Notes under the pieces: model-generated | Told to the model about the DNA's origin: nothing | The model's input: the letters and a program-made list of their open reading frames with translations, nothing else | Database searches by the model: none | In this document: piece by piece, positions 14,194-35,078 of the stretch | How positions within the stretch are numbered: position 1 is the stretch's first letter | Layout of the letters: each line of letters begins with the position of its first letter | Made by a program: the position numbers and the translations under genes | Origin: Dehalococcoidia bacterium | GTDB taxonomy: Bacteria; Chloroflexota; Dehalococcoidia; SZUA-161 | DNA: 64,000 nucleotides | Assembly: GCA_011174795.1 (NCBI GenBank) | Contig: DUEY01000002.1 | Location: 11,013 to 75,012, forward strand | Direction: 5' to 3'

Positions 14194-14216
14194 ATTACCG
14201 TATTAATCCGGAGCGA

Positions 14217-14287
14217 TGGGGATTGGTCTAGCGGTAGGACAGCGGACTCTGGATCCGTAGGCCCAGGTTCGAATCCTGGATCCCCAG
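14217..14287 (+). tRNA. tRNA-Gln (anticodon CTG)
   Basis: Acceptor TGGGGAT/ATCCCCA (compare E. coli tRNA-Gln UGGGG...CCCCA), anticodon loop CTCTGGA, T-loop GGTTCGAATCC. CCA not encoded. Confidence 0.8.
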
Positions 14288-14317
14288 CTTTTTACCCTTA
14301 ACAAACTGGCTATACAC

Positions 14318-14394
14318 GGCGCATTCGTCTAGCGGCCTAGGACACCGCCCTCTCAAGGCGGAGATCAGGGGTTCGAATCCCCTATGCGCTACCA
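14318..14394 (+). tRNA. tRNA-Glu (anticodon CTC)
   Basis: GGCGCAT..GTCTAGCGGCCTAGGAC (typical tRNA-Glu D-arm), anticodon loop CTCTCAA, T-arm AGGGGTTCGAATCCCCT, encoded CCA. Confidence 0.85.
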
Positions 14395-14407
14395 TTTCGC
14401 AAGTAAG

Positions 14408-14728
14408 GTGTTGCAGGTGAGCGATATACTTGATGAAGCCGATGCTGTGGTGCAGTGCAAAGAATGCCCCTGGTATAAGTCCTGCGTCATGCCGATGAGG
14501 TATACCGCGGATGATATTAAAAGGCAGTTGCCAGCTTCACCCTTCGCTTCAGACGATGCCACCATGTCCAGATACTTTGCCGAACTCGCCGCAGCGACAC
14601 AGAATTTCCTCCTCGAGGGCTGCCCCGTATTCATCCAGAGGCTAAGGGCCAGCCCCAAACTTGCAGAGAGAATCAAGAAGCTGATGCAAAGCTGGGGAGC
14701 GGAAGAGGAGACCAGATCCCAGACCTAG
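14408..14728 (+). CDS. hypothetical protein (start uncertain; the track start 14384 would overlap the tRNA-Glu 3' end)
   Basis: 114-aa ORF with CxxC (CKECPW). An in-frame GTG start clear of the tRNA was chosen. Confidence 0.35.
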   Translation: MLQVSDILDEADAVVQCKECPWYKSCVMPMRYTADDIKRQLPASPFASDDATMSRYFAELAAATQNFLLEGCPVFIQRLRASPKLAERIKKLMQSWGAEEETRSQT

Positions 14729-14845
14729 AGCTATGCGAACACTGCTCGTGCGCCAGCTTTTCAGACACAGGTCCGTGTCCCATCTCCGCAGCCACCGCGA
14801 GATGGTATACTATAACCCGCAGATACTCCCAGAGATGAGAGCACT

Positions 14846-15526
14846 ATGATCGAATTGCGCAATGTCTGGCGACTGTACCGCATGGGTGACGAGACCATCA
14901 ATGCGCTTGCCGGCATCGATCTGGAGATCAGTCAAGGTGAATTCATATCTATCGTAGGACCGTCTGGCTCAGGCAAGAGCACGCTGCTTAATATCATCGG
15001 AGGGCTCGATTCCCCCACCACCGGCACAGTCGTAGTAGACGGACAGAACCTGAGTAAAGCCAGCGACAGAGAGCTCTCGCTATACCGCAATAAAAAGGTG
15101 GGCTTCGTCTTTCAAACCTTCAACCTTCAGCCCACGTATACAGCCTTAGAAAATGTGGCGCTGCCTCTCGTATTCGCCAAGGTCCCGCTGAGAAAGCGTA
15201 ATGAAATAGCCAGGGATACCTTGGAAACGGTTGAGCTAGCCGAACGTCTCGGTCATACGCCGGGACAGCTTTCAGGAGGTGAGAGGCAGCGGGTCGCCAT
15301 TGCACGCGCCCTGGTAAACGACCCCAGGATTTTGCTTGCCGATGAGCCTACAGGAAACCTCGACAGCAGGACAAGTGAGCTCATCGTGGAGCTTCTGCAA
15401 CGGTTGAGCAAGGAGCGTGGTATAACCATGCTGCTGGTTACCCACGAAATGATGATCGCCGAACATGCTAATCGAGTTATACACATGCTAGACGGCCAGA
15501 TAGCCAGGTCGACAGAAAGAAAGTAG
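14846..15526 (+). CDS. ABC transporter ATP-binding protein (MacB/LolD-like)
   Basis: Walker A GPSGSGKST, signature LSGGERQR, Walker B LLADEPTGNLD. Confidence 0.85.
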   Translation: MIELRNVWRLYRMGDETINALAGIDLEISQGEFISIVGPSGSGKSTLLNIIGGLDSPTTGTVVVDGQNLSKASDRELSLYRNKKVGFVFQTFNLQPTYTALENVALPLVFAKVPLRKRNEIARDTLETVELAERLGHTPGQLSGGERQRVAIARALVNDPRILLADEPTGNLDSRTSELIVELLQRLSKERGITMLLVTHEMMIAEHANRVIHMLDGQIARSTERK

Positions 15527-15530
15527 TATC

Positions 15531-16838
15531 TTGACTATAAGAGACCTTTTACGCAACGCGTTCTCCAACCTGCGGCGCAGGAAGCTGCGCAGCTTCCTGA
15601 CCATCTTCGCTGTCGTCATCGGGGCAGCTTTGGTATCGCTGCTCGTATCACTGGGAGTCGGTGCGCAGGAATTTCTCACCGCTCAGATCAGGGCGACTAT
15701 GCCCCCCGACGTACTGATGGTCGGCTCCAACCCAAACGCATTCCAGATAGGATTTGGCGCCATGGGCTTCGGCGGTAGCCCTGAGGAAATAACTGACGAC
15801 GAAGGCAGCCCCTATTCACTGGCCCCACTGACGCCGCAAGAAATCGAGAGTGTCCGTGCACTCGAGCATGTAGAGCGAGTGGATCCCTATATAATGGTCT
15901 CGGCAGACTCAGTCAGATTGCAGAACTCAGAGAAGAGATTCCGAACACAGCTCACAGCCTTACCAGACTATTTGATTACATCGAAAGAGCTCGTGGCGGG
16001 AAGGTACCTTAATGATGATTCACAGGGTGAGTGCATTATCGCCAATCAGTACCTCGAATCCTTCAACTTCGACCGGGCAGAGGACGCCCTGGGGCAAGAG
16101 GTAGTCATACAGGTCGGGCAGATAACCAGCTTCATAGGGCTACCAACCAAGACTAAGGACTATACCTTCGAGATAGTGGGAGTAGCCGAGAAAACGCTGA
16201 GTTCGACTCAGATTATGATCTCTATCGAAGACGGCAAGGAAATAGCCCGCTTTTGGGCGAATGAGCCGGAGCTTTATACTGATGAGGTGCCACCTGCCAT
16301 TCTGCAGGTAAAGGTCGAGGACAGTCAGTACGCTGACCAGGTAGCCGAAGCAGTCGAAGACCTCGACTTGGGCGCGCTCACGTCCGCCGATGTCTTGGGT
16401 CTTGTCGGCGACATCTTCACCATAATCCAGGCTGTTCTCAGCGTATTCGGGCTGATCGCCCTGGGCGTCGCCTCCCTGGGGATCATCAACACATTGATCA
16501 TGGCTATATACGAGCGCACAAGGGAAATCGGGGTGATGAAGGCGGTAGGAGCATCCCAGGGAACAGTTCGCAGGCTCTTTACTACCGAGGGAGCAGCCAT
16601 CGGTTTCCTGGGAGGGGTCATCGGTGTAGCTATAGGCTACGGCCTCGGCTTTATTATCAACCAGGTTTCCCACAGCACCTTTCTCGCGGATTTCGAGACA
16701 TTTAATATATCCGTTTTCCCGTGGTGGCTTATCGTGGGGGTCATCGCTCTCAGCACCCTGATCGCCCTCCTGGCCGCGCTTTATCCAGCCCACAGAGCCT
16801 CCCGTCTCGATCCCATCGAGGCACTGAGATACGAATAG
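15531..16838 (+). CDS. ABC transporter permease, FtsX/MacB family
   Basis: N-terminal TM helix, large periplasmic domain, C-terminal FtsX-like 3-TM bundle. Immediately follows the ATPase gene. Confidence 0.8.
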   Translation: MTIRDLLRNAFSNLRRRKLRSFLTIFAVVIGAALVSLLVSLGVGAQEFLTAQIRATMPPDVLMVGSNPNAFQIGFGAMGFGGSPEEITDDEGSPYSLAPLTPQEIESVRALEHVERVDPYIMVSADSVRLQNSEKRFRTQLTALPDYLITSKELVAGRYLNDDSQGECIIANQYLESFNFDRAEDALGQEVVIQVGQITSFIGLPTKTKDYTFEIVGVAEKTLSSTQIMISIEDGKEIARFWANEPELYTDEVPPAILQVKVEDSQYADQVAEAVEDLDLGALTSADVLGLVGDIFTIIQAVLSVFGLIALGVASLGIINTLIMAIYERTREIGVMKAVGASQGTVRRLFTTEGAAIGFLGGVIGVAIGYGLGFIINQVSHSTFLADFETFNISVFPWWLIVGVIALSTLIALLAALYPAHRASRLDPIEALRYE

Positions 16839-17374: not shown

Positions 17375-18085
17375 ATGGTTAGGCAGAAATACTCCCAAGC
17401 TGCCGTTAGTGGAACCAGCGACCGTCCTTTAGAACGAACACTGGTTGAGGTCTATCAACATCTCATGGATTACTACGGGCCACAGCACTGGTGGCCGGGA
17501 GATTCCTCCTTCGAGGTCATTGTCGGCGCTATCCTGACCCAGTCCGCAGCATGGGGGAACGTGGAGAAGGCAATCTCAAACCTGAAAAATGCAGGAGCTT
17601 TGTCCCCTAGCTCCCTTCGAGAGATAACACTGGAGGAGTTGGCACACCTCATCTATCCCTCCGGCTATTATAATGCCAAGGCACTGAAGCTCAAATCTTT
17701 CGTCGAACACCTGGGAAGTGCTCACCAGGACTCCTTGGAGCAGCTTTTCGTCCTCGACATCTGCAGCCTGCGCAGCGAGCTGCTCTCAATTCACGGCATC
17801 GGAGATGAGACAGCGGATTCGATAATCCTCTATGCCGCACGGAAGCCGATATTTGTCATCGACGCCTACACCAGGCGCATTATTGCCAGGCTCGGGCTCA
17901 ACCCGCCGCGAAACGACTACGCCGCTTTCCAGTCGTTATTTATGGAGAACCTGCCCGCCGATGAGAAGCTGTTCAACGAATACCACGCCCTTCTCGTTCG
18001 CCACGGCAAAGAGGTATGCAAAAAGTCCCCACTTTGTGCACAGTGCTGCCTGAACAGCCTTTGCCCTCGCTTATTTCCAATATAA
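17375..18085 (+). CDS. HhH-GPD base-excision repair glycosylase (endonuclease III-related, [4Fe-4S] loop)
   Basis: HhH-GPD core plus C-terminal Cys loop C-x5-C-x2-C-x5-C. Confidence 0.7.
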   Translation: MVRQKYSQAAVSGTSDRPLERTLVEVYQHLMDYYGPQHWWPGDSSFEVIVGAILTQSAAWGNVEKAISNLKNAGALSPSSLREITLEELAHLIYPSGYYNAKALKLKSFVEHLGSAHQDSLEQLFVLDICSLRSELLSIHGIGDETADSIILYAARKPIFVIDAYTRRIIARLGLNPPRNDYAAFQSLFMENLPADEKLFNEYHALLVRHGKEVCKKSPLCAQCCLNSLCPRLFPI

Positions 18086-18269
18086 GCAGGCTACAACAGG
18101 AAAACGGCCCTGTAGCCTATGTGCCCTTCATTCAGGAGAGCAGGCTGCTTGAAGAAGACCCACACTGGCCGGATGACTTGACGCCAGCGAGCAGTAGCTT
18201 TAACATAGCACAACACCCCTATAATAATGATATGTGGCATCCTATTCAGGATGTAAAGAGAACGATAAG

Positions 18270-19067
18270 ATGATAATTGTAGGTGAGAAGATAAACACCA
18301 GCCGCCGGAGTATTGCGGAAGCCGTCGAGAAGCGGGATACTGACTTCATTGTCGGTGTGGCGAGAGAGCAAGCCGAAGCCGGCGCTAATTATATCGATGT
18401 CAATGCCGGAACTTTTTTAGAGCAAGAGGCTGATTGCCTCTGCTGGCTGGTCGAGACAGTACAGAACAGTATAGACCTGCCACTTTGCTTAGACAGTCCC
18501 AATCCAGCAGCACTATCCGAAGCAGCAAGGCGCCACAGAGGGGAACCGATGATCAATTCAATTTCACTGGAAGCAGACCGTTTCCAGTCCCTGCTCCCCG
18601 TGGTCACTTCCCAACCCTGTCATATCGTCGCCCTCTGCATGTCCGAAACATCAATGCCTATTACTACAGAGGAAAGAGTCCAGGTTGGTTCAGAACTCAT
18701 TAAGAAGCTTACAGACGAAGGTATTCCCCTTGGAAAGATTTATGTCGACCCATTGGTACAGCCTGTTTCCGTCGATATCCAAATGGGAATAGCTACGCTC
18801 AATGCTATAACGAGGCTTATGAATGACTTTCCCGGCGTTAACACCATTTGCGGCCTTTCCAACGTCTCTTTCGGGCTTCCGGAAAGACACCTGATCAATC
18901 GCAGCTTCCTGGCTCTTTGTATGGCGTCCGGCCTTTCTGCCGTTATTCTTGACCCGACTGATAAAAAACTCATGGCTACGCTCCTGGCCGTTGACATGCT
19001 TCTGGGACAAGACGAATACTGCGAAAAATACATAGATGCCTACCAGAACGGCACTATTGCTGGATAA
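18270..19067 (+). CDS. methyltetrahydrofolate:corrinoid methyltransferase (pterin-binding, MtrH/MeTr/AcsE-like)
   Basis: MIIVGEKINTSRR...GANYIDVNAG is the pterin-binding (DHPS-like) fold of MtrH/MeTr. Start moved to the MIIVGEKIN Met by analogy with the paralog at 34253-35062. Confidence 0.75.
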   Translation: MIIVGEKINTSRRSIAEAVEKRDTDFIVGVAREQAEAGANYIDVNAGTFLEQEADCLCWLVETVQNSIDLPLCLDSPNPAALSEAARRHRGEPMINSISLEADRFQSLLPVVTSQPCHIVALCMSETSMPITTEERVQVGSELIKKLTDEGIPLGKIYVDPLVQPVSVDIQMGIATLNAITRLMNDFPGVNTICGLSNVSFGLPERHLINRSFLALCMASGLSAVILDPTDKKLMATLLAVDMLLGQDEYCEKYIDAYQNGTIAG

Positions 19068-19108
19068 TAGCCATCCTTTTCCATTTGTACAGAAAAAGTT
19101 AAAGGGGG

Positions 19109-19753
19109 ATGAAAATGGGTGAGTATAAGGCATTAAACGGGGCTGTGCTCAAGGGGGATATCAATACAGCGACAGCGGAGATGCAAAAAGCCATAGATGC
19201 CGACAAAAACGTTCAGGATATCATCGACAACGGGCTCATTGCCGCCATGGACGAGGTTGGCGAGAGGTTCTCCAAAGGGCTGCTGTTCGTACCCCAGATG
19301 CTGCGCGCAGCCAAGACTATGCAGGAGTGCATGAAACTGATCGAGCCCCTTCTTCAGAAAGGCGATGTTACCCCCAAGGGAAAGGTGCTGATTGGCACAG
19401 TCAGGGGCGACCTTCACGACATCGGGAAAAACCTCGTTTCCATGATGATGGAGAGCGCAGGATTCATGATAACCGACCTGGGAGTGGATGTCCCCCCGGA
19501 GAAGTTTGTCCAAAAGGCACAAGAAGTGGAACCGGACATCGTCGCCATGTCAGCTTTGCTCTCCACCACCATGCCGGCCATGCCCCAGACCATCGAGGCT
19601 CTGGGCAAAGCCGGGCTCAGAGCCAAAGTCAAGGTGATGATTGGCGGAGCACCGGTTACCGAGAACTACGCCCATGAAATCAGGGCAGACGCCTATGCGT
19701 CCGATGCTGGTTCTGCCGTGAGCAAAGCTAAAAAGCTACTCGGTATTTCCTGA
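19109..19753 (+). CDS. cobalamin-binding corrinoid protein (MttC/MtbC-like)
   Basis: B12-binding DxHxxG motif (DLHDIGKN), N-terminal helical cap, Rossmann-like B12 domain. Confidence 0.8.
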   Translation: MKMGEYKALNGAVLKGDINTATAEMQKAIDADKNVQDIIDNGLIAAMDEVGERFSKGLLFVPQMLRAAKTMQECMKLIEPLLQKGDVTPKGKVLIGTVRGDLHDIGKNLVSMMMESAGFMITDLGVDVPPEKFVQKAQEVEPDIVAMSALLSTTMPAMPQTIEALGKAGLRAKVKVMIGGAPVTENYAHEIRADAYASDAGSAVSKAKKLLGIS

Positions 19754-19794
19754 GCAAGCTCAAAAAGATATCTCCGTCACAAAGGAGGAGAGCT

Positions 19795-21243
19795 ATGAAA
19801 TCATTAAATATCCCCACCTTTCTCCCCCGATTAAAAGTACTGAACCGAGAACAGGCGTTAGCAATACACCAGGCTGCTTTAGAAATCCTGGAAAAGACGG
19901 GATTTAAGATGGAGCACCCCGACGCCCATCAAATGCTTGTCGATGCCGGGGGCAAGGTTACCAATGACGGTCGGCTTACATTACCTGCTTACCTTGTTGA
20001 AGAGGCCTTAAAAACAACTCCGAAACAGATCGCACTTTATGACCAGAAGGGCAACAAAACGATGCCCCTGGTAGACGGCAATCCATTCTACGGCACAGGT
20101 TCGGACGCCACATTCACCCTGGACCTGGAGACCGGTCAACGTCGGCGAGCTGTCTTAAAAGACGTCGCCAATTTCGCCAGACTGGTGGACAACCTTGAAA
20201 ATATCTCCTTCGCCATGTCTATGGCCAATCCCGACGATGTTCCCGTAGAGGATATCTATGTCTACGTTTTTGCCGAGATGATTAAAAACATCAACAAACC
20301 CATCGTATTCATTGCAGACAGCGGCAGAGACATTGCCAAGATCTACGAAATCGCCTGCCTTGTGGCAGGCGGTGAAGAGGAATTTCAGAAAAAACCGTTT
20401 ATGCTCAATTACTCGGAAGCCATCAGCCCTCTGCGCTTCCCGCAAAACGTTATGGAAAAACTCATTTTCTGTGCCCGGAAAAAGATACCGATTTGCCTTC
20501 CATCAGGCTCCAATGCCGGAGGCGGAGCCCCGATCACGATTGCCGGTGCCATGGCTTTGGGGATCGCCGAGAACCTGGTCGGGCTCGCTGTCCATCAGTT
20601 GACCAATAAGGGGGCGCCTTTCCTTTTCGGTCCCAATGTAAGCACTTTGGATATGAAGTCCACCGTAGTTTCTTACGGCTGCCCTGAATGGAGTCTCAGC
20701 CAAGCTGCCCTCGCTGATATGCGTGATGAAATGTACGGCTTGCCCACCTGGGCCTATGCCGGGGCCTCAGATGCTAAAGTAATGGATGCCCAGGCAGGAG
20801 CCGAGGCCATGTTTTCCATTATCACCGCCATGCTCTCCCGCTCGAATTTGATTCACGATGTAGGTTTCTTGGAATATGGGAATACCTCTTCGCTAGAGAT
20901 GGTGACCATGGCGAACGAACTGGTAGCCATGAGCCGCTTTTTTACCGAGGGTATCCCTGTCAACGAAGGGACCTTAGCCCTCGACGTAATAGAGAGGGTG
21001 GCCACTGGTGGCCCCGGTTCCATCTTCCTCACAGACGATCACACCTTCGATTATTTCAGGGAGGCCCAGTTTCTTCCACAGCTTCTAGACCGCTCCCGAT
21101 ACGATTCATGGAAAGAGGCCGGAGCTATGGACCTCTATACAGTCTGCAATACCGAAGCAAAGAGGATACTCTCGGAACATCAGGTCGAACCTAAAACCGA
21201 TGAGGTGCTTAACGAAGTCGATCGAATCCTTAAAGGACGCTGA
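19795..21243 (+). CDS. MttB-superfamily (trimethylamine methyltransferase-like, non-pyrrolysine) substrate:corrinoid methyltransferase
   Basis: Full-length 482-aa TIM-barrel MttB-family protein with no in-frame amber codon. Strong SD AGGAGGAG. Confidence 0.85.
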   Translation: MKSLNIPTFLPRLKVLNREQALAIHQAALEILEKTGFKMEHPDAHQMLVDAGGKVTNDGRLTLPAYLVEEALKTTPKQIALYDQKGNKTMPLVDGNPFYGTGSDATFTLDLETGQRRRAVLKDVANFARLVDNLENISFAMSMANPDDVPVEDIYVYVFAEMIKNINKPIVFIADSGRDIAKIYEIACLVAGGEEEFQKKPFMLNYSEAISPLRFPQNVMEKLIFCARKKIPICLPSGSNAGGGAPITIAGAMALGIAENLVGLAVHQLTNKGAPFLFGPNVSTLDMKSTVVSYGCPEWSLSQAALADMRDEMYGLPTWAYAGASDAKVMDAQAGAEAMFSIITAMLSRSNLIHDVGFLEYGNTSSLEMVTMANELVAMSRFFTEGIPVNEGTLALDVIERVATGGPGSIFLTDDHTFDYFREAQFLPQLLDRSRYDSWKEAGAMDLYTVCNTEAKRILSEHQVEPKTDEVLNEVDRILKGR

Positions 21244-21257
21244 TACGAAGTAGAATC

Positions 21258-23306
21258 ATGGGAAATAGCCTGCCATTATACAGACCACTAACCCCGAAAG
21301 ATGTCCAGCACATCGACCAAGCTGGGCGCCGAATACTGGAACGCATCGGCATCAGTATCTATGACAGTAAATTCCTCGACATTCTGAAAGCAGCAGGAGC
21401 TCAGGTAGATTACGACAATCAGAGAGTACGCTTTCCAGGAGACTGGCTTGATGAAGCTCTGGGCAAAGCCCCCTCTCGCTTCACGCTATACTCTCGAGAT
21501 GGTCGAAATGACCTTCATCTAGGAGAAGGCAACGTCTACTTCACCAACGGAGGCCGGGTATTTCGAATTCTCGACATGGGAACAAGCAATTACCGCTACA
21601 CCATGATAAGACATGTGGCACGTACTGCCGCCCTCGTGGAGCACCTGGAGCACATTCGACTTTATATCATTGCCTGTCAGGCTCACGCTCTTGAACCTCA
21701 AATATATCATTTGAACGATTTTTTCCACGCCTTCAACCATACTACGAAACATGTAATGGGAGGCTGCGATAACCTGGCAGGCGCTGAACAGGTATGGGAA
21801 CTCGCAAGCTTTATCGCAGGAGGAGAGGGTAAACTTAAAAAAAAGCCCTTCGTCTCGGTAATCACAAATATGATAAGTCCCCTTACTATTGAGACGAAAG
21901 CACTGAATATACTCGACTTTTGCACGAAACATGGTATACCCACTACATGCGCACCTGCGCCTATCGCCGGAGCCACCTCGCCCGCAACCCTGGCAGGGAC
22001 ACTTGCCCAGATGCATGCTGAAGCCTTGGCAGGAGTTGCCCTGACACAGGTGTTCGCCCCCGGCGCCAAGGTGCTCTATGGAGCTGTTCCCACGATAATG
22101 GATTTGCGAAAAATGGACTTCACAATGGGCTCGGTGGAAATGGCGATGATGAACGCTGCCGCAGTCCAACTGGCGAAGCTCTACAACCTGCCTATCTATG
22201 CCTCGGCCGGAGTCACCGAGGCTAAAAGACCTGACATTCAGGCTGGCTTCGAAAAGACCTTTTCCGATTTGCTCGTGGCTATGGCAGGGGCGGATTTCGT
22301 CCACCTGGCTGCCGGAATGCTGGATTCAGGGAATACCATTTCCTATGAACAGTATGTCATAGACAACGAGATTATCGGAATGGTTCAGAGGATACTGGCG
22401 GGCATTAAAGTGAATAAGGGTACGCTAGGACTGGATATAATCGAGAAAGTTGGGCCCGGCGGGAACTATGTCACGGAAGATCACACCGTCGAACATATGA
22501 TGGATGAATTCTTCTACCCCGCGTTAAGCGTGCGATTAAACTTCGATATATGGGAGGAAAGGGGACGTCCCAGCATATTAAGCCGCGCTAAAGACAAAGC
22601 GCAAGAAATCCTGAAAGACAGCAAAGAAGGCCTCCTGGAACCAGACCTGGTCGCTGAGATAGAAAAGGCTTTCCCCGCTATACAAATGTCAATTACAAAA
22701 TCGCCGACCAGGGCCAAACAAGCTACACGTATTATAGCTTGCATGGTTTTCAAACCTGTCCTCGATCATCTTCAATTGGAAAAAAGATATCGTAACCTGC
22801 GTATAACCTACCTGCCAGCCAACCTGCATATGAACCCGCAGAAGTTAAAAAACTACCTGCTGAAACAGATAGCCGCAGCTGAGAAAAGAAACGAGCGAAT
22901 CATATGCCTTTACGGGGACTGCTTTCCAGATATTGACGACTTTTGCGAACAGCATGGAGCAATGAAAGCTCCTGGGACTCACTGCTATGAAATGCTTCTG
23001 GGGAGTGATCAATTCAAGCAGCTTACTGAAGAAACGGCAGGTACCTATTTTCTGGAGAAAGAACTTATTCTCAACTTCGACGAATTTTGTATTCAGCCCT
23101 TGGAACTCTATGATGAAGAAATGCGAAAATATTGCTTCGAACACTACAAGAGGCTGCTCTATGTGAGGCAGCCCTCAGACCCGGATGTCACGCCCCAGAC
23201 AAAAGAACTGGTTGAATTCTTAGAGTTGCCTCTGGAGATTAGAAACGCTGATTATTCAGATCTCGAGAGGAAGTTAATCAAGTTAATCGAGCCTAGACTT
23301 CTTTGA
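21258..23306 (+). CDS. MttB-superfamily methyltransferase fused to a C-terminal ~200-aa Cys-containing domain of unknown function (DUF1638-like by recollection)
   Basis: The N-terminal ~480 aa are colinear with the other MttB paralogs. Unrelated extra C-terminal domain (CLYGDCFPDIDDFC...HCYE). Confidence 0.8.
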   Translation: MGNSLPLYRPLTPKDVQHIDQAGRRILERIGISIYDSKFLDILKAAGAQVDYDNQRVRFPGDWLDEALGKAPSRFTLYSRDGRNDLHLGEGNVYFTNGGRVFRILDMGTSNYRYTMIRHVARTAALVEHLEHIRLYIIACQAHALEPQIYHLNDFFHAFNHTTKHVMGGCDNLAGAEQVWELASFIAGGEGKLKKKPFVSVITNMISPLTIETKALNILDFCTKHGIPTTCAPAPIAGATSPATLAGTLAQMHAEALAGVALTQVFAPGAKVLYGAVPTIMDLRKMDFTMGSVEMAMMNAAAVQLAKLYNLPIYASAGVTEAKRPDIQAGFEKTFSDLLVAMAGADFVHLAAGMLDSGNTISYEQYVIDNEIIGMVQRILAGIKVNKGTLGLDIIEKVGPGGNYVTEDHTVEHMMDEFFYPALSVRLNFDIWEERGRPSILSRAKDKAQEILKDSKEGLLEPDLVAEIEKAFPAIQMSITKSPTRAKQATRIIACMVFKPVLDHLQLEKRYRNLRITYLPANLHMNPQKLKNYLLKQIAAAEKRNERIICLYGDCFPDIDDFCEQHGAMKAPGTHCYEMLLGSDQFKQLTEETAGTYFLEKELILNFDEFCIQPLELYDEEMRKYCFEHYKRLLYVRQPSDPDVTPQTKELVEFLELPLEIRNADYSDLERKLIKLIEPRLL

Positions 23307-23350
23307 TAGTCAGAGCTTTTCAAACGAACCGTAGCCGGTCTTAAGCGGAT

Positions 23351-25306
23351 ATGGGAGTTAATATGAGGAAACATCAATTGGAAACGCCACAGCATGAAAA
23401 ATTTAGGAGAGGAAAACGCCCTATTGGAACCTCCGTGCTGAAAAAAAGTAGAACACAATACGTCTGGCTGAATGTTCTACCCGATGACCTCTGGCTGAAG
23501 GTTCGCCAGGGGGAAACTGTCTGGGGAGCTTTGAAAAGAGAAGGGGTTGAACTGGAAAGCGACTGTGGCGGACTGGGTAAATGCGGTAAATGCAAAGTGC
23601 GTGTCCTCTCTTCGATAGGGCCTCCATCTAAGGAAGAAGAAGAACTCCTCGATGAGGAGGAGTTGAAACAAGGCATCCGCCTCGCCTGCCGCACCGAAGT
23701 AGACAAAGACTTTGTGATTCATACCGAAGAAACCGATTTCGAGGCTGAGTATTTTCAGATTCTCAAAACCGGCCATCGGCCTTTTTTCCATACCCAGCCA
23801 CTTATAAACAAGCGGTTAATAACCCTGCCCCCAGATTTATTGGACGAGGGGATATCCGAGATGGACCGGATTAAAATGGTGATGGTCCCCGAATATCAAG
23901 ACCTTGTAGCCCCTATCCACTGTCTCCGTACGTTACCCGAAAGGCTAGATGCAACTGATTACCATGGAGCGGCAGTGCTCCATGAGAACTCACTGCTGGC
24001 CTGGCAAGACTGGGAGGAAGTGGACTGCCACTTCGGATTGGTCTACGACCTCGGTACCAGTACACTGGTGGGCAAGCTAATCAGTCTGATAGACGGAAGC
24101 GAAGTCGCCGTAGTCTCCTGCCTCAATAGCCAGATGAAGTACGGCTCAAATGTTATCAGTCGGCTCAAATACCTGCAGGACCATGCCAACGGCCTCGAAA
24201 GGTTCCATAACCTTCTCATCAATGACTTGAACCGCATCACTACACGCCTATTAAAAGCAGCCAATCTTCAGCCGAACGACGTTTTTATCGCCGTTGCGGC
24301 GGGTAACACCACCATGCAGCATTTTCTTCTTACACTGGACCCTTCAGGGATCGCCGAAGCGCCGTTCTCGCCTGTATTAACCGACGGGCTGATTGTGGGA
24401 GCAGCAGCCGTTGGCCTCGAATTGCACCCTGAAGCCCTCTGCTATGTGATGCCAACCAAATCCGGTTATATCGGCGGAGATCTAATCAGCGTCATCCTCA
24501 CCTCTGGAGCCTGGGAACAGGAGGATGAAATTATATTGGGGCTGGATCTTGGCACCAATGGAGAAATATTTCTCGGCAACCACAAGAGACTCCTGACATG
24601 CTCAGCTGCCGCCGGCCCTGCCCTCGAGGGCGCAACAATCTCACACGGGATGATTGCCAAGGCTGGAGCTATAGAAGGCGTCAGCGTAGAAGCGGACAAT
24701 GTGAGCTATCAGATCATCGGGAATATAAAGCCCAAAGGAGTTTGTGGGAGCGGACTGGTCGATTTAGTCGCAGTGTTGTTACATTGCGGCTATATAAACC
24801 ACGAAGGCCTGCTCCGTCCACCCCGTAAAAATAGAATAGAGAGCCTGGATTCAAAAATGATCAAGCGGGCAGGAGTTTATGAATTCCTCATCGCGTCCGC
24901 GGAGGAAAGTTATAGCAGTAGACCTATGTACCTCACGCAAAAAGACATTCGAGAACTCCAACTCGCCAAAGCTGCCGTAGCAGCCGGTATACAAATTTTA
25001 ATGAACGATATGGGCATCGTCACCGAGGACATCAAACACGTTTACCTCGCCGGTGCACTCGGTAATTATGTAGACCCGTTGAGTGCCATACGTACCGGTC
25101 TTATTCCTAGATTTAATCCAGAAATTGTCACGTCATTGGGCAACGCCGCCAGCACGGGGGCTTCAATGGCCCTTTTGTCCAAGAACTACTGGCGGATGGC
25201 TAACGAGCTTTCAGACTTCATCGAGCACGTTGAGCTTTCCTCTCGCCTCGACTTCAATGAATTTTTTGTCGAGAACATGGATTTTCCTAAAGGTAATATA
25301 TGGTAA
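23351..25306 (+). CDS. reductive activator of corrinoid enzymes (RACE/RamA-like ASKHA ATPase with N-terminal 2Fe-2S ferredoxin domain)
   Basis: N-terminal plant-type ferredoxin motif CGGLGKCGKCKV, followed by an acetate/sugar kinase-like ATPase domain as in corrinoid activases. Confidence 0.8.
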   Translation: MGVNMRKHQLETPQHEKFRRGKRPIGTSVLKKSRTQYVWLNVLPDDLWLKVRQGETVWGALKREGVELESDCGGLGKCGKCKVRVLSSIGPPSKEEEELLDEEELKQGIRLACRTEVDKDFVIHTEETDFEAEYFQILKTGHRPFFHTQPLINKRLITLPPDLLDEGISEMDRIKMVMVPEYQDLVAPIHCLRTLPERLDATDYHGAAVLHENSLLAWQDWEEVDCHFGLVYDLGTSTLVGKLISLIDGSEVAVVSCLNSQMKYGSNVISRLKYLQDHANGLERFHNLLINDLNRITTRLLKAANLQPNDVFIAVAAGNTTMQHFLLTLDPSGIAEAPFSPVLTDGLIVGAAAVGLELHPEALCYVMPTKSGYIGGDLISVILTSGAWEQEDEIILGLDLGTNGEIFLGNHKRLLTCSAAAGPALEGATISHGMIAKAGAIEGVSVEADNVSYQIIGNIKPKGVCGSGLVDLVAVLLHCGYINHEGLLRPPRKNRIESLDSKMIKRAGVYEFLIASAEESYSSRPMYLTQKDIRELQLAKAAVAAGIQILMNDMGIVTEDIKHVYLAGALGNYVDPLSAIRTGLIPRFNPEIVTSLGNAASTGASMALLSKNYWRMANELSDFIEHVELSSRLDFNEFFVENMDFPKGNIW

Positions 25307-27033
25307 GAAAAAATAAGAATAAACATCAAAGCAGTGTAACCATTGGTGTTGTCGGCGCCGGCGGCGATGGGGTTGTGGTGCTGGGCAGTTTCTTACAGAG
25401 ACTTGCTGCCTCACAGGGATATTTCAGCCAGATGCCCAGGTACTATGGTGCCCAGATTCGAGGTGGAAGCTCAGCAGTAAAACTGGAGTTGAATGCAGAA
25501 TCCCTATCACTGCCCAAAGATAGCCTAGACATTCTTGTATGTTTTAACTGGGATAAGTATCTGGAGTTTGAGCAGGAACTACCGCTTGCGGTTGATACCT
25601 TGGTAATCTACGAGACTAAACCCCAAGGCGCTATCAAATTGCCAGAGCCGTCATTTCAAGTCGATTTTTCTAAAAAAAGTAAAGAGGTAACCGGTTCAAC
25701 ACAAAACAAGAATATCGTAGCACTGGGATTACTGAAGAGAATTCTGGCCCTGCCTGATAAAAAGGTAAAGGTAGCTATTGAAACCGACATTGAATTAGAA
25801 CTGTTAAAGGCGAATCTTCCCGCCCTCGAAGCGGGTGAGCACTTATTTCCAGAATTGTCTCTCCCCGAGTTTAAATTAGCCCCGGCAACAGATAAGTCTG
25901 CTAAACTGATTATCCATGGAAATGCCGCTATGGCACAAGCTGCAATACACGCCGATTGCCGGGCTTTTTTTGGCTACCCCATTACACCCGCAGCAGAAAT
26001 TATGCAGGAAATGCAAAAGGAGCTTTCCCGGAATAAGGGCGTCTTCCTTCAAACAGAGGACGAGATTGCTTCAGCAGGACTTGTTATCGGTTCTTCCATC
26101 GTTGGTGCGAAGTCGATGACCTCCACCAGCGGTCCGGGACTCGATTTGATGACCGAGATGATGGGCCTAGCTTCTGCCGCTGAAATTCCGATGGTTATCA
26201 TCGATGTACAGCGCTGCGGGCCATCTACCGGCATACCGTCCAAGTCCGAGCAGTCAGACCTCAATCATGCCATCTACGGCGGTCACGGTGACGGACCCAG
26301 AGTGGTTCTGGCTCCCTACGACGTAGAAGGGTGTTACCGCCTCGTTATCGAGGGTTTCAGTATCGCTCAATATTTCCAGACCCCTGTCGTTATACTCTCC
26401 GATCAGTGGCTGGGACAAACCTTTCTCGCAATAAACAACAGATTCATGACTGAAGACTACCCAAGCCATGCAAGAATAAGCCCCGCAGTAAATGAGCTCG
26501 CTGATTATCACCGTTACCAGTTGACAGATAAGCTGATTTCGCCGATGGCAGCCGTAGGGGACGAAGGATTTACGTATCAAACAACCGGCCTTACTCACAA
26601 TGAGGAGGGGGCGCCGGCCTTCGATTTCGAGACCCATCAGAGAATGCATGAGAAAAGGTGGAGGAAACTGGCGCCGCTTTGCCAGAGGAATGATCTGGTT
26701 AAGGTTTTTGGTAAAGAGGAATCAAGCACAGGAATAATAACCTGGGGCTCCTCCGCTCAGGTTGTCCTGGAAACGGTCAAAGCCCTCGGGTTAGAGCATA
26801 GTCTCAAGCTTTGTGTACCAGAACTGGTCCACCCTCTACCAATAGGGGTCGAGAGGTTTATAAGCTCCATAAAAAAACTTCTAGTGGTCGAGATGAATTA
26901 TTCCGGGCAGTTTTATCATTATCTTCGGTCTCAAATAGACTTGCCCAAGAAAACCGAGCTCTACGCAAGGGCTGGAGGTCGACTCTTCAGCAGGAAAGAG
27001 CTTGCCCAACCCATAACAAAGGTGGCGAAATGA
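25300..27033 (+). CDS. 2-oxoacid:ferredoxin oxidoreductase, fused gamma-alpha subunit
   Basis: N-terminal gamma-like domain (GVVGAGGDG) and KorA/PorA core (GNAAMAQAAIHADCRAFFGYPITPA). Start overlaps the RACE stop by 7 nt (ATGGTAA). Confidence 0.8.
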   Translation: MVRKNKNKHQSSVTIGVVGAGGDGVVVLGSFLQRLAASQGYFSQMPRYYGAQIRGGSSAVKLELNAESLSLPKDSLDILVCFNWDKYLEFEQELPLAVDTLVIYETKPQGAIKLPEPSFQVDFSKKSKEVTGSTQNKNIVALGLLKRILALPDKKVKVAIETDIELELLKANLPALEAGEHLFPELSLPEFKLAPATDKSAKLIIHGNAAMAQAAIHADCRAFFGYPITPAAEIMQEMQKELSRNKGVFLQTEDEIASAGLVIGSSIVGAKSMTSTSGPGLDLMTEMMGLASAAEIPMVIIDVQRCGPSTGIPSKSEQSDLNHAIYGGHGDGPRVVLAPYDVEGCYRLVIEGFSIAQYFQTPVVILSDQWLGQTFLAINNRFMTEDYPSHARISPAVNELADYHRYQLTDKLISPMAAVGDEGFTYQTTGLTHNEEGAPAFDFETHQRMHEKRWRKLAPLCQRNDLVKVFGKEESSTGIITWGSSAQVVLETVKALGLEHSLKLCVPELVHPLPIGVERFISSIKKLLVVEMNYSGQFYHYLRSQIDLPKKTELYARAGGRLFSRKELAQPITKVAK

Positions 27034-27857
27034 GGGCACGTGCCGATTACAGGACAACTCTCAAGCCAGTCTGGTGCGCGGGCTGTGGTAATTTCGGCCT
27101 GCTCAACGCCCTAACCAAGAGAGTGCTGCCCGAGATCGGGATTCCCAACTATCAAACCCTTATCATTTCCGGCATCGGCTGCTCCTCGCGGATCCCTGCT
27201 TATATAGACACCTACGGTTTTAATAGCATACATGGCCGAGCACTGGTTATCGCACAGGGAGCGAAACTGGCAAAACCTGAGCTGACGGTAGTAGCCGTAG
27301 GTGGTGACGGTGATTTCTTCAGCATCGGAGCAGGCCATCTTCCCCACGCAGTGCGAAGAAACATCGATATCACCTGCATCATGGTCAACAACTTTGTCTA
27401 TGCCCTGACGAAAGGGCAGATTAGCCCCACAACACCACACCTGCTAAGAGGTGAAGGGCCTTTTCTTTCACTGGAACAGTACCCACCGGTCGACCCACTT
27501 CTGGATATGATCAGCTACAGCCTTTCAACCCGGGCTAGCTTCATCGCCCAGGGGATAACCACGGATATCCCTCATCTCGAATGGCTCATAAAGGAAGGGA
27601 TTGAACACAAAGGGTTTTCCTACATAAGTGTGTTCTCGCACTGCGTTACCTTCAATCCGCCGGAGCTATTCAGCACAATAAGAGCGAATGCACGCTATCT
27701 GCAAGAGGGCGAACTAGTCGAATTGCCAGCATCATCAAGAGAGAAGCCCTGGAGACACGACCTGAGCGACATAAGCCGCGCTCTACAACTGGCCCAGATC
27801 TCACTTCTCGATGAACCGCTTCTGGGGATATTCTTCCGAGGAAAAGAAGTCTATTGA
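27030..27857 (+). CDS. 2-oxoacid:ferredoxin oxidoreductase beta subunit (TPP-binding)
   Basis: CAGCGNFG and TPP motif GGDGDFF. ATGA start/stop overlap with the alpha subunit. Confidence 0.8.
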   Translation: MRARADYRTTLKPVWCAGCGNFGLLNALTKRVLPEIGIPNYQTLIISGIGCSSRIPAYIDTYGFNSIHGRALVIAQGAKLAKPELTVVAVGGDGDFFSIGAGHLPHAVRRNIDITCIMVNNFVYALTKGQISPTTPHLLRGEGPFLSLEQYPPVDPLLDMISYSLSTRASFIAQGITTDIPHLEWLIKEGIEHKGFSYISVFSHCVTFNPPELFSTIRANARYLQEGELVELPASSREKPWRHDLSDISRALQLAQISLLDEPLLGIFFRGKEVY

Positions 27858-28767: not shown

Positions 28768-30357
28768 TCAGTGCACATGTTTCAAGTCGCCATCCATCGT
28801 GCCCCTCACCTTCTCCCTCTCCTCGGCAAAATCGAAACCCGTCCAGATTCCGATTGAACCAAGCACCGAGTCCTGAGGATGGTACTTACGGAAGATTTTA
28901 AAATAGTATGCCGCTTCCCGGCTGTTTATCTTCGCCAAAGGATTCTCAGCCTTGATGCGCTCGAAATCATCCTCACTTATTTCACTGTGAGCCAGCTTTT
29001 CCCCAAGGTCTTCGCAGCCCGCTCCCTGTGTGTACTGCACCTTGTAGCGCCATAGTATATCGTCGGGGAGGTAACCGGTATCTTCAAACGCCTTGCGCAG
29101 AATCCACTTCTCTATCCTATCCCCGACATATTCAGACTCACGAATCTTGAGCTCGGGAGGAATCTTCATAGCGAGGTCGACCATAGCTACATCCAAGAAA
29201 GGCACCCGTAACTCCAGGCTGAAGTACATCCCCATTCGGTCCGCACGCTGCAGGTTTATATTATGGAGATTGCCGATGCAGCGCCTCGCCTCCTTATTGA
29301 GAACATCAATGGGATAATGCTTCATATAGTGATAGCCCGTGAATATCTCGTCCGCCCCCTCACCTGTGAGCACCACCGTCACGTAATCGGCAGCCAGCTT
29401 GCAGGTGAAATAACAGGGAACGGCACAGCGTACAAGTGAAGGATCGTAGCTCTCAAGCTCCTTTATAACAATCGGCAGCGCCTCATAGTATTCATCCTCG
29501 GTAAATATCAACTCGTGATGTGTTGAGCCAATATGTTTTGCCGCAATACGGGAGGCCTTAAGGTCATCGCTCTCATCGCCGGATTCATCCTTCATGCCCA
29601 CCACGAAGGTGTGAAGATGAGGTATCTCTTCAGCAGCTATTGCAGCCACCAAGCTGCTGTCCAAACCGCCACTGCAGAAGGAGCCCACATGGATCTCCTT
29701 ATCCGACAACAACCTTTTCTTAACCGCCCGAATAAACGTTTCCCTGATTTTCATACAGGTCTGGTCTATATCCGTCAACATATGATCTTCGATAGGCGGA
29801 ATCTCATAGTACTGTACAAACCCCTCCTTAGGGGTGTAATAGTGCCCGGCGGGAAACTCATGACACTCCTCCACACCAGCCAGCGTCATAGCACCGAGTT
29901 CCGAGGAGAAATAAAGCTTGTCCTCAACATAGCCATAGTAGAGGGGTTTAATACCGATAGGATCGCGGGCCAGCATAAAATCATCACCATCGAAGATGGC
30001 AAATGCGAACATACCATCGAGTTCTTCTACACACCGAGGTCCTTTCTCTCGGTAAAGATGAAGAATTGATTCAGTATCCGACTGGGTCAGGAACTCGTAT
30101 TTAGAGATGAGCTTCTGCCGTAACTCCCGGTAGTTGTAGATTTCACCATTACAGATTATCCCCGTCCTTCCACCATTTACCAGAATGGGCTGATGGCCTT
30201 TAGCAACATCGACAATAGACAGCCTGGTGTGACCAAATACCGTGTTGTTGAAAGTATGGAGTCCGCGGTCATCTGGCCCTCGATGAGGCAGTGCGTCCAG
30301 CATTCGATTGATTGTCTTTTCGTCTCTGGTGCCAAAACAACCTGCTATGCCACACAT
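28768..30357 (-). CDS. asnB: asparagine synthase (glutamine-hydrolysing) family protein
   Basis: N-terminal MCGIAG Cys nucleophile, RLSIVD glutamine-binding motif, PP-loop SGGLDSS. Confidence 0.85.
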   Translation of the reverse strand: MCGIAGCFGTRDEKTINRMLDALPHRGPDDRGLHTFNNTVFGHTRLSIVDVAKGHQPILVNGGRTGIICNGEIYNYRELRQKLISKYEFLTQSDTESILHLYREKGPRCVEELDGMFAFAIFDGDDFMLARDPIGIKPLYYGYVEDKLYFSSELGAMTLAGVEECHEFPAGHYYTPKEGFVQYYEIPPIEDHMLTDIDQTCMKIRETFIRAVKKRLLSDKEIHVGSFCSGGLDSSLVAAIAAEEIPHLHTFVVGMKDESGDESDDLKASRIAAKHIGSTHHELIFTEDEYYEALPIVIKELESYDPSLVRCAVPCYFTCKLAADYVTVVLTGEGADEIFTGYHYMKHYPIDVLNKEARRCIGNLHNINLQRADRMGMYFSLELRVPFLDVAMVDLAMKIPPELKIRESEYVGDRIEKWILRKAFEDTGYLPDDILWRYKVQYTQGAGCEDLGEKLAHSEISEDDFERIKAENPLAKINSREAAYYFKIFRKYHPQDSVLGSIGIWTGFDFAEEREKVRGTMDGDLKHVH

Positions 30358-30426: not shown

Positions 30427-31908
30427 TTATGCATTATCCAGGAAGAAAGCCGGCCTGAAAGGATCCCACCTGCCTACTAACCTATCGAAGGCAGGATCGG
30501 GGAATGTCTCCTTGAACATCCGGTAGTAATACAACTCCTCAACTGACGACAACCAGGGGGTATCCTCGGTCCTGTTGTGTTCTGCCAGGTCGATTGATGA
30601 GAGGTGCTTCTCAGCCTCCTCACGCATAGCATACGCTACACCAGAGCCCTGAGCGAAGAACCGCTTCGTCTGGTAGATGATGTGGTCGGGCAAACAACCC
30701 TCAAAGGCCTGTCGCAGGACCCACTTCCCCGTCTGCTCAGGGCCATGAATCTTGCAACTTAGTGGGATCTTCAGACAAAAGTCCATCACCCTTGCATCGA
30801 GGAACGGTGTGCGGCTTTCATACGAATTCGCAGCATTCAGTCTATCCAGCCGTTGTAGTGCTGTATTATGAGCAACATTGATAAGCTGGTCGACTATACT
30901 GGCGATCTCCTCAAGGTTTTTTCCCTGCCTGAACTGGCCGTCATACCCGGCTAAGAACTCATCAGCCCCTTCCCCAGTAAGAACGCACTTAGCATGCGGG
31001 CTGACAAAGCGCCCTGCCAAGAAATTGGCGATTGCACCGTGTACACAGCTTTCCTCATACATCTCCTGATGATAGATGGCCAAAGGCAGTATCTCGCTTA
31101 TCTCTTTTTCGCTAAACATCAAGATATGATGCTTAAGGCCAAGGTACTCCGTCACATCCTTTGCCAGCGGCAGGTCCTGCCCCTCCTCCATACTCACCGT
31201 AAAGCATTCGATATCCGGCTTTACCTCGTGGGCCATATAGGCAATAAGGCTGCTGTCCAGACCGCCACTCAGGAGGATACCTTTTACAGCGTTGTCCCTC
31301 ATCCTCTTTTCAGTTGCTTCCATTAAAAGCTGCTTTACCACTTTCTTGGCTTGCTCATAATCCTCGAAATCCGGTGTTTCGACGGCCTCGGAAGTCGGAT
31401 ACTTCTGGAATCCCAGTTCGCGGGAGTAAACGTATCCGGGCGGGAACTCCCTGACATCTCTAGAGATGCCCACCAGTGCTTTTGCCTCAGATGCAAAGCA
31501 CAGGCTCCCATCACTGTTATGCCCGTAGTATATCGGTTTAATACCAGCCCAATCACGAGCCAGTATTAGCTTGCCATTATCCGACACGGCACAGGCAAAG
31601 TCGCCGTTTATCTTAGCGGCAAAGCGGGTGCCGAACCTGACGTACAGGTCAAGCACAGCCTCAGCGTCGGCTTTAGTTCCCTTATCCGAATTGTAAACAC
31701 GCCCATCGAGAACGACCGCTACCTTGCCGTCAGAGGTATAATGGGAGCCATCCCTGCAGTCTGCACCCATATTCAGCTCATTGCAACCTACATTCACCTC
31801 GCCTTCGCGGCTCGTCCAAGTCTCGTGAGGGCCTCTGTGCTTGATCCGCTCAAGCATTCGGTCTAGCTCACCGTTATCAGCACCCTGAACTCCCGCTATT
31901 CCTGCCAA
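30427..31908 (-). CDS. AsnB-family ATP-dependent amidoligase with degenerate glutaminase domain (Cys1 replaced by Ala; beta-lactam-synthetase-like architecture)
   Basis: The N-terminus is MAGIAG (no Cys), and the glutamine-binding RLSI motif is replaced. The PP-loop SGGLDSS is retained. Confidence 0.75.
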   Translation of the reverse strand: MAGIAGVQGADNGELDRMLERIKHRGPHETWTSREGEVNVGCNELNMGADCRDGSHYTSDGKVAVVLDGRVYNSDKGTKADAEAVLDLYVRFGTRFAAKINGDFACAVSDNGKLILARDWAGIKPIYYGHNSDGSLCFASEAKALVGISRDVREFPPGYVYSRELGFQKYPTSEAVETPDFEDYEQAKKVVKQLLMEATEKRMRDNAVKGILLSGGLDSSLIAYMAHEVKPDIECFTVSMEEGQDLPLAKDVTEYLGLKHHILMFSEKEISEILPLAIYHQEMYEESCVHGAIANFLAGRFVSPHAKCVLTGEGADEFLAGYDGQFRQGKNLEEIASIVDQLINVAHNTALQRLDRLNAANSYESRTPFLDARVMDFCLKIPLSCKIHGPEQTGKWVLRQAFEGCLPDHIIYQTKRFFAQGSGVAYAMREEAEKHLSSIDLAEHNRTEDTPWLSSVEELYYYRMFKETFPDPAFDRLVGRWDPFRPAFFLDNA

Positions 31909-32653: not shown

Positions 32654-32655
32654 TT

Positions 32656-35062: not shown

Positions 35063-35078
35063 CTTTCTACACTCCCAT

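Follow-up and report, generated by a model that had tools for sequence, protein, structure and literature searches.

Several corrinoid-dependent methyl-transfer systems built around proteins of the MttB superfamily have been described, and we compare them here with a locus (locus 1, positions 18234–27857) in a 64-kb stretch of contig DUEY01000002.1 (assembly GCA_011174795.1; contig positions 11,013 to 75,012), which belongs to a metagenome-assembled genome of a Dehalococcoidia bacterium from estuarine sediment. This whole stretch is referred to as the window. In the glycine betaine system of Desulfitobacterium hafniense, MtgB/MtgC/MtgA (structures 2qne and 9yce), a non-pyrrolysine MttB-family methyl-donor-activating methyltransferase (MT1) acts with a His-on corrinoid protein (CoP) and a Pterin_bind methyl-corrinoid:tetrahydrofolate methyltransferase (MT2), which delivers the methyl group to tetrahydrofolate (THF). 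The glycine betaine site of MtgB was defined in 2026, by mutagenesis and a ligand-bound structure, as Tyr97, Arg312, His348 and Phe356 (PMC13080624), and Arg312 was reported to be conserved in MtgB, MtcB, MtpB, MthB and MtyB, all of which act on acidic quaternary amines (PMC13080624). The Eubacterium limosum enzymes MtpB, MtcB, MtyB and MthB are also non-pyrrolysine MT1 enzymes that feed methyl-THF, and they need an ATP-dependent corrinoid activase, RamQ, which is encoded elsewhere. In Methanosarcina barkeri, by contrast, MttB/MttC (7xcl, 7xcn) depends on a UAG-encoded pyrrolysine, and coenzyme M is the methyl acceptor.

Two further comparisons concern reactivation of the cofactor. The split MetH and MtgBC systems of Phaeobacter inhibens and Ruegeria pomeroyi, with activases of the [2Fe-2S]/DUF4445 type, are the only ones in which the domain of unknown function DUF1638 has genetic or proteomic support. 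Fitness data published in 2018 showed DUF1638 to be co-fit with, and phyletically matched to, the RamA-like activase of the Phaeobacter split methionine synthase, although the authors offered no specific function for DUF1638, and DUF1638 is induced together with RamA on N-osmolytes in Ruegeria. In both organisms DUF1638 is a separate protein (PGA1_c13340, SPO2162) and the locus numbers of the activases are distant from it (PGA1_c15200, SPO2041). RACo of Carboxydothermus hydrogenoformans (3zyy) has the domain order [2Fe-2S] ferredoxin, middle domain and ASKHA ATPase, and its client is CoFeSP. The physiological electron donor of RamA/RACo-type activases has been described as unknown.

Locus 1 is a variant of this well-known type of system. 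A model's reading of the letters of the window, made without database searches (the original prediction), had described it as seven co-directional, closely packed genes for a complete MT1, CoP, MT2 and activase system with an adjacent 2-oxoacid:ferredoxin oxidoreductase (OFOR). That reading proved largely right, and the observation behind it was confirmed: the open reading frame (ORF) listing and profile searches placed seven ORFs on the plus strand of this interval, their domain content agreed with the proposed functions, and the E-values of the family matches (1e-20 to 1e-108 across the seven ORFs) excluded chance. The intergenic gaps were 14–44 nt, and the RACo and OFOR-alpha genes overlapped by 7 nt and the OFOR-alpha and OFOR-beta genes by 4 nt. 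By analogy with the characterized systems, we consider it likely that locus 1 is one copy of a conserved six-gene cassette that transfers methyl groups from one or two methylated compounds to THF via a B12 protein. By homology, the two MttB paralogs, MttB-A and MttB-B, would be two MT1 enzymes, each methylating the Co(I) of the single CoP with its own substrate, or would form one joint complex; the MeTr/MtgA-type MT2 would take the methyl group off methyl-Co(III) and load it onto THF; and cofactor oxidized to Co(II) would be returned to Co(I) by the RACo-type activase, at the expense of ATP and with an electron drawn from its own [2Fe-2S] cluster. DUF1638 would act together with the MT1 and reactivation machinery, and in the window strain a flexible linker ties it to the C-terminal end of MttB-B. 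In the window strain and some relatives, the translationally coupled OFOR would probably feed low-potential electrons into the activase via ferredoxin.

The evidence for a cassette came from a scan of species-representative genomes that identified 260 relatives of MttB-B. The best 80 of these (66–79% identity) were used further, and comprised 50 Chloroflexota, 23 Desulfobacterota-type, 3 Nitrospirota and 4 others. The window proteins were mapped onto these 80 loci and onto loci from an exact-protein look-up, with the contigs that reached far enough serving as the denominator for each component. The order MT2–CoP–MttB-A–MttB-B–DUF1638–RACo was retained wherever the contig was long enough, with few exceptions as counted per component: MttB-A lay beside MttB-B in 72 of 73 loci, at a median spacing of 23 nt, and the CoP was present in 64/64, MT2 in 55/57, DUF1638 in 75/78 and RACo in 61/63. 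The genes flanking the cassette varied between loci. The occurrence of two MttB genes in one operon had been thought unusual, a view which these counts overturn: given its near-universal presence in related loci with variable flanks, the tandem is the defining trait of a widespread mobile cassette. No description of the cassette in Dehalococcoidia was found in the searchable literature. In one Chloroflexota lineage (loci L010/L011), a gene for a 198-aa PEMT/ICMT-like membrane methyltransferase (9406–10002) lies between the two MttB genes, and genes for an APH-family kinase and a HAD hydrolase are upstream on the opposite strand.

Table 1. Features of locus 1 (positions in the window).
Feature	Position	Strand	Basis
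Promoter-like site, TTAACA-17 nt-AATAAT	18200..18228	+	~40 nt 5' of MT2 start codon; 10/12 consensus positions; weak
MT2, methyl-corrinoid:THF methyltransferase, MeTr/AcsE/MtgA type, 265 aa	18270..19067	+	Pfam Pterin_bind, 74 bits
Corrinoid (B12) protein (CoP)	19109..19753	+	B12-binding_2 cap and B12-binding Rossmann domains; His-on DxHxxG motif
MttB-A, non-pyrrolysine MttB-superfamily MT1, 482 aa	19795..21243	+	Pfam MTTB, 284 bits
MttB-B domain (residues 1-476 of 682-aa fusion)	21258..22685	+	Pfam MTTB, 362 bits
Linker, ~11 residues	22686..22718	+	DNA alignment with unfused locus L001; pLDDT (predicted local distance difference test) <50 for residues 475-486
DUF1638 domain (residues 488-682 and stop codon)	22719..23306	+	Pfam DUF1638 (PF07796), 104 bits, gathering score 27
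RACo-type ATP-dependent reductive activase of corrinoid proteins	23351..25306	+	N-terminal [2Fe-2S] Fer2, Raco_middle and RACo_C_ter (ASKHA)
OFOR alpha, gamma domain fused at N-terminus	25300..27033	+	POR and POR_N; start overlaps RACo stop
OFOR beta (thiamine pyrophosphate-binding), 275 aa	27030..27857	+	TPP_enzyme_C; ATG overlaps alpha stop as ATGA

The only truly unusual feature of the window copy is a gene fusion. The second of the two predicted MttB proteins does belong to the MttB family, and it is not a plain MttB: ORF 21258–23306 encodes a 682-aa protein in which an MTTB domain (residues 3–469) is followed by a complete DUF1638 domain (profile match to residues 519–671). In the unfused locus L001, a TGA codon closes MttB-B, and a GGAGG ribosome-binding site precedes the DUF1638 gene. 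Neither this stop codon nor the ribosome-binding site between the two genes survives in the window, where the stretch is read through as the linker. The C-terminal 195 residues were 65–71% identical, over 96% of the length, to stand-alone 196-aa DUF1638 proteins. Protein searches identified fused orthologs in five 90%-identity clusters only, including that of the window and originating from different samples, and the unfused 478-aa form in several hundred clusters. The fusion was found in 0 of the 80 species-representative genomes. An identical fusion protein is encoded on contigs of a sulfate-methane transition zone metagenome. The five clusters, the absence from the 80 genomes, and the stop codon and ribosome-binding site in relatives together indicated that the fusion is real, recent and rare.

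An AlphaFold model of the DUF1638 domain, made from 52 aligned sequences, had a pLDDT of 89.6 and showed alternating beta-strands and helices in a two-lobe alpha/beta arrangement. Four residues, Cys8, His37, Cys68 and Cys89 of the domain (Cys495, His524, Cys555 and Cys576 of the fusion), lie in this model at or just past the C-terminal ends of the first four strands, and they were conserved in 100%, 96%, 98% and 100%, respectively, of 100 diverse DUF1638 members. They probably constitute a metal site, binding Zn or an Fe-S cluster. Fold searches with the domain returned generic two-lobe alpha/beta folds only. We infer that DUF1638 is a cofactor-bearing or sensing module that would work directly with corrinoid methyltransferases. 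An exhaustive search for the domain yielded 667 clusters at 50% identity. In other organisms, seven proteins carry further DUF1638 fusions: to URO-D-family methyltransferases, to a DAO-type FAD oxidoreductase, and at the N-terminus of PAS/HisKA_2/HATPase sensor histidine kinases. In MtgB and MttB dimers, a C-terminal extension or dimerization loop shapes the rim of the partner's cavity and holds the corrinoid protein, so that a tether at the C-terminus of MttB-B would place DUF1638 near the docking site. An interface between the DUF1638 and MttB domains was considered and is not claimed, given a predicted template modeling score (pTM) of 0.59 for the full-length fusion and the low pLDDT of the linker. 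Unlike in Phaeobacter and Ruegeria, DUF1638 here has a fixed place in a cassette, with MT1 on one side and RACo on the other, and in the window strain it forms one protein with MT1.

The gene that follows DUF1638 encodes the activase, and the [2Fe-2S] domain that had been predicted for this protein was found together with both RACo domains, which identified it as RACo-type. Its best match among solved structures was RACo itself (3zyy; 6e-92, over residues 44–643), with which it shares its domain order. It differs from that protein in its client, which is likely to be the small His-on CoP instead of CoFeSP, and it scored below the family cut-offs for AcsV (NF040756; 383 vs 800) and RamA (TIGR04270; 130.7 vs 500). 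Two relatives had altered activase genes: in L001 the activase is a RACo of 784 aa that carries a CBS domain at its C-terminus (12062–14416), and genes for MtaB and URO-D methyltransferases follow a few kb further on; in L023 two RACo genes in tandem are followed by OFOR (12113–16225). Upstream in the window, the MT2 was related best to MeTr-type enzymes: it scored 331.5 bits against NCBIfam PRK07535 (cut-off 259), and its best solved structures were 4o0q (5e-59) and the MeTr entries 2yci and 2e7f. The protein had been called MtrH/MeTr-like, and of this only the MeTr part stood, in that the profile search reported Pterin_bind as the sole Pfam domain and no match to MtrH (PF02007). The MT2 ORF opens with a GTG at 18234, and its start is likely the ATG at 18270; the PRK07535 match begins at ORF residue 13, and on three contigs of this strain the gene callers arrived at the same length of 265 aa.

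OFOR differs from the six genes described so far in its distribution. Of 54 loci, 8 had it within ~3 kb on the 3' side of RACo, and of 47 loci none had it upstream of the cassette (Fisher p = 0.007, kinship ignored). The prediction that OFOR is coupled to the activase gene thus held for the window strain, as seen in its start and stop overlaps, and failed as a core property: OFOR is an accessory and is not in the core cassette. The alpha subunit scored 489.9 bits against TIGR03710, above the 482.75 cut-off for the two-subunit type; the beta subunit was below the cut-offs of PRK11866 (244 vs 402) and TIGR02177 (219 vs 262), and its start, read from the sequence, gives the same 275 aa as the gene calls. 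The fused two-subunit OFOR of the window type was found at five loci (61–78% identity) and a separate three-gene OFOR at three others (33–39% identity).

This distribution leaves room for OFOR being an ordinary central-metabolism neighbor with no functional tie to the cassette, and we regard this as a serious possibility, if somewhat less probable than a tie. No OFOR stood 3' of RACo in 46 of 54 loci or in any copy from Desulfobacterota or Nitrospirota, and the OFOR-bearing loci are all Chloroflexota, so that shared ancestry could account for part of the association, which may be partly inherited gene order. Against mere neighborhood are the confinement of OFOR to the RACo side, the occurrence of two non-orthologous OFOR organizations at this same position, the overlap of the alpha start with the RACo stop in the window, and the presence of OFOR alpha (9 loci) and beta (7 loci) among the three most recurrent flanking families; an AsnB-like family also occurred at 9 loci. 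A route from OFOR via ferredoxin to the [2Fe-2S] cluster of RACo in some Dehalococcoidia is a reasonable hypothesis.

Both MttB paralogs are MttB-family proteins, in that MTTB (PF06253; cut-off 25 bits) matched MttB-A over profile positions 27–482 and MttB-B over 26–489 of 500. They share 30% identity. All four MttB paralogs of the window (MttB-C and MttB-D are encoded at a second locus described below) were 25–37% identical to one another and 24–35% identical to MtgB, 4yyc and Methanosarcina barkeri MttB. Within orthologs, conservation was far higher: MttB-A orthologs at 75 loci were 72–84% identical to the window protein, and the unfused 478-aa MttB-B orthologs were 66–79% identical to the window MttB-B.

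We read the substrate-pocket columns from an alignment of 72 MttB-A and 82 MttB-B orthologs. At the column of MtgB Tyr97, which is Gly110 in MttB, MttB-A has Ser and MttB-B has Gly, so that Gly110 is retained in B alone of the pair; at the column of MttB Thr111, A has Asp and B has Arg. At MtgB Arg312, the residue is Trp in A (72/72) and Tyr in B (76/82, with Arg in 4/82). The column of MtgB His348 is a gap in A and Leu in B (78/82), with a His one residue earlier in both, and that of MtgB Phe356 holds Gly in A and in B (67/82). The column of the pyrrolysine, Pyl334 of MttB, holds Ala in A (70/72) and Val, Leu or Ile in B (Val in the window), MttB Met249 corresponds to Gly in A and Ala in B, and MttB Tyr364 to His in A and in B (69/82). 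The A columns were invariant in the 72 orthologs, save for the Ala at the pyrrolysine position. The resulting signatures are Ser-Asp/Trp/Ala/Gly/His for MttB-A and Gly-Arg/Tyr/Val-Leu-Ile/Ala/His for MttB-B. Strong conservation of a separate set of pocket residues in each ortholog group makes it probable that both proteins are under selection and functional. The two sets differ from each other, which points to two working sites that do not share one specificity: an acidic group might still be bound by the invariant Arg of B, and the invariant Asp of A hints at a ligand of another kind.

A related explanation differs from ours only in the use of the pair. MttB-A and MttB-B may be subunits of one obligate heteromeric MT1, for instance a catalytic and a CoP-docking subunit. 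The persistence of the tandem across phyla, its short spacing and the presence of a single corrinoid protein would fit such an arrangement, as would the contribution of one subunit of MttB and MtgB dimers to the partner's cavity rim and to the holding of the CoP, and locus 2 likewise combines two MttB paralogs with one corrinoid protein. The conserved and differing pocket residues are more typical of two active sites with distinct specificities, and no heteromeric MttB-family enzyme was described in the literature found on the family. We therefore judge an obligate heteromer to be possible, and distinctly less probable than two separately working enzymes.

An ordinary glycine betaine:THF system of the Desulfitobacterium hafniense type, with one or both paralogs being orthologs of MtgB, is improbable. 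MtgB was the best solved-structure match of both paralogs (2qne and 9yce; 8e-62 and 8e-71), MtgC_2 was the best NCBIfam match of the CoP, one database homolog of MttB-A is named ‘Glycine betaine methyltransferase’, and the invariant Arg of MttB-B, which stands beside the Tyr97-equivalent position, might bind a carboxylate in another way. However, all four betaine-binding residues of MtgB were missing from MttB-A and MttB-B of the window and from the 72 A and 82 B orthologs, apart from the few B orthologs with Arg at the Arg312 column. Identity to MtgB was ~30%, equal to that with the pyrrolysine MttB (~31–32%), and a neighbor-joining tree with 200 bootstraps grouped MtgB with 4yyc at 100% and left out A, B, C and D. 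In this tree, which is distance-based and has a small reference set (MtgB, 4yyc and Methanosarcina barkeri MttB, the last reconstructed from alignment output), B, C and D fell together and A formed a separate deep branch. The CoP matched MtgC_2 with 203 bits, far under the cut-off of 370, and was also below the equivalog cut-offs for MtbC (198 vs 350) and TIGR02370 (193.5 vs 215.3). The CoP carries GDLHDIGK as its His-on motif, aligned with the motif of 1y80, its best solved structure (6e-54); MttC (7xcn_M) followed at 3e-46. The cassette is further set apart from the D. hafniense system by its two MT1 enzymes in place of one and by its own DUF1638 and RACo.

The E. limosum enzymes are set apart by their reported Arg312, kept for an acidic group of the substrate, in place of which A has Trp and B has Tyr; in addition, RACo is encoded within the cassette. 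None of these enzymes was among the solved structures matched by A or B. Betaines had been offered as example substrates of the two paralogs, and they gain no support here: both paralogs lack all four MtgB residues, among them the Arg312 reported for MtgB, MtcB, MtpB, MthB and MtyB. The accompanying caution that the substrate could not be assigned from sequence was well placed, in that the pocket residues of A and B matched no characterized enzyme.

A biosynthetic role, in which methyl groups would pass from methyl-THF via the corrinoid protein to an acceptor, as in the Phaeobacter split methionine synthase with its RamA-like protein and DUF1638, is very improbable. The sole genetic data on DUF1638 do come from a split MetH, and the MtgC of Ruegeria has been reported to serve methionine synthesis as well as betaine demethylation. 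However, the window encodes no domain that would bind homocysteine, and the characterized MttB-family proteins are all methyl-donor-activating MT1 enzymes.

A trimethylamine (TMA) system has hardly any likelihood left, even though JGI and NCBI names of homologs say TMA (‘trimethylamine--corrinoid protein Co-methyltransferase’ in automated annotations), TIGR02369, the pyrrolysine MttB equivalog, was the only NCBIfam match of both paralogs, and MttB-B shares with Methanosarcina barkeri MttB a fold family, the Tyr at the Arg312 column and the Gly at position 110: the scores of 373 (A) and 435 (B) bits are under the 525 cut-off, the pyrrolysine is replaced by Ala in A and Val in B and the catalytic Tyr364 by His, methyl groups go to THF via a Pterin_bind MT2 and not to coenzyme M, both MttB ORFs are free of in-frame stop codons (UAG included), and the 64-kb window holds no tRNA-Pyl and no pyl genes. 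The original prediction had already noted the missing amber codon. The conclusion that the substrates of MttB-A and MttB-B are neither glycine betaine bound in the manner of MtgB nor TMA activated by pyrrolysine is part of the cassette explanation that we favor, and we hold it with the same good but incomplete confidence.

A bolder version of that explanation combines several of its parts, and as a whole we think it unlikely. In it, a Cys3-His metallo-domain of DUF1638 would dock on MT1 by the CoP site, OFOR would be the physiological electron source of RACo, and the substrates of A and B would lie beyond the known acidic quaternary amines. DUF1638 would then hand the Co(II) protein to RACo, relay electrons or sense the redox state, and the MttB-DUF1638, URO-D-DUF1638 and DUF1638-sensor-kinase fusions would serve as Rosetta-stone evidence. 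As one example, a single compound would be demethylated twice in succession by the two paralogs, and A, with its Asp and His, would act on a protonated tertiary amine without pyrrolysine. Several points weigh against our interpretation of the cassette, beyond the absence of OFOR from most loci and its confinement to Chloroflexota. The case for a metal site in DUF1638 is one of residue conservation, the full-length model of the fusion showed no confident domain interface, and clustering of 771 flanking ORFs yielded no recurrent transporter, kinase, catabolic or substrate-modifying gene beside the cassette. Two links from the literature were considered and set aside as not relevant to the cassette, namely the proposed connection of MttB with HgcA and the chloromethane enzyme CdmB, which is of the UroD family.

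Promoter and terminator scans of the region gave site counts not above those of shuffled sequence, and the window as a whole yielded no cobalamin riboswitch, although two B12-dependent loci are present. A 63-aa ORF (18082–18273, plus strand) was predicted by gene callers; it had no family match, its TGA overlaps the MT2 start codon as ATGA, and it is probably spurious, as it was not seen 5' of MT2 in other lineages.

Locus 2 (31979–37203, minus strand) is convergent with locus 1 and encodes a Met_synt_B12-like protein, MttB-D (503 aa), a second MT2, MttB-C (513 aa) and a second corrinoid protein. The Met_synt_B12 protein (224 aa, similar to the activation domain of MetH) takes the place that RACo has in locus 1. 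Orthologs of MttB-C (49–83% identical) were found within 10 kb of the locus 1 cassette in eight other genomes of two phyla, and orthologs of MttB-D (50–80%) in four of these eight. A pairing of A with C and of B with D, drawn from their Ser-acid and Gly-X signatures, was not supported by the tree. MttB-D is the window paralog nearest to the pyrrolysine MttB (35% identity), and Rfam PYLIS_3 matched at 35459–35558 on the minus strand, inside the MttB-D gene (35079–36590), with 53.6 bits (gathering score 38). We rejected this match as a pyrrolysine signal: the UAG of the model falls on an AUG (Met) codon and the score is almost all primary sequence, as expected from coding homology.

Beyond the corrinoid gene of locus 2, a 493-aa asparagine-synthase-like protein (30427–31908, minus strand) lacks the N-terminal Cys nucleophile (MAGIAG) and scored under the AsnB cut-offs, and its neighbor (28768–30357) is a bona fide AsnB (599 bits vs 499). 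Nucleophile-less AsnB-like genes (MSG...) lie beside cassettes at nine loci in two phyla. By analogy with the kinase MthK, such a protein might alter a carboxylate group carried by the substrate or the product.

The remainder of the window comprises housekeeping genes. A thiamine pyrophosphate riboswitch (37665–37767, plus strand, 70.9 bits) lies 5' of thiC; the ORF start at 37717 is inside the riboswitch, which places the true thiC start further downstream. Three plus-strand ORFs had no Pfam match (1384–2175, 46013–47338 and 60653–61210; 263, 441 and 185 aa), and a 1204-aa protein (41576–45190, plus strand) has a recognizable domain, a GH130 mannoside phosphorylase, only in its C-terminal 320 residues.

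The value of locus 1 is in the widespread dual-MttB cassette, the DUF1638 leads and the OFOR hypothesis. The rare fusion, the other DUF1638 fusions and the Cys/His/Cys/Cys set are the first concrete, testable leads on DUF1638, and the coupled OFOR can be tested as a candidate for the donor that supplies RamA/RACo-type activases with electrons in the cell. The cassette itself adds two strongly conserved MttB ortholog groups, which occur in at least 80 anoxic-sediment species belonging to Dehalococcoidia, Desulfobacterota and Nitrospirota. As the pocket residues of these two groups match those of no characterized enzyme, an abundant sediment methyl donor of consequence for carbon and nitrogen cycling may be going unrecognized, or may be misannotated as trimethylamine.

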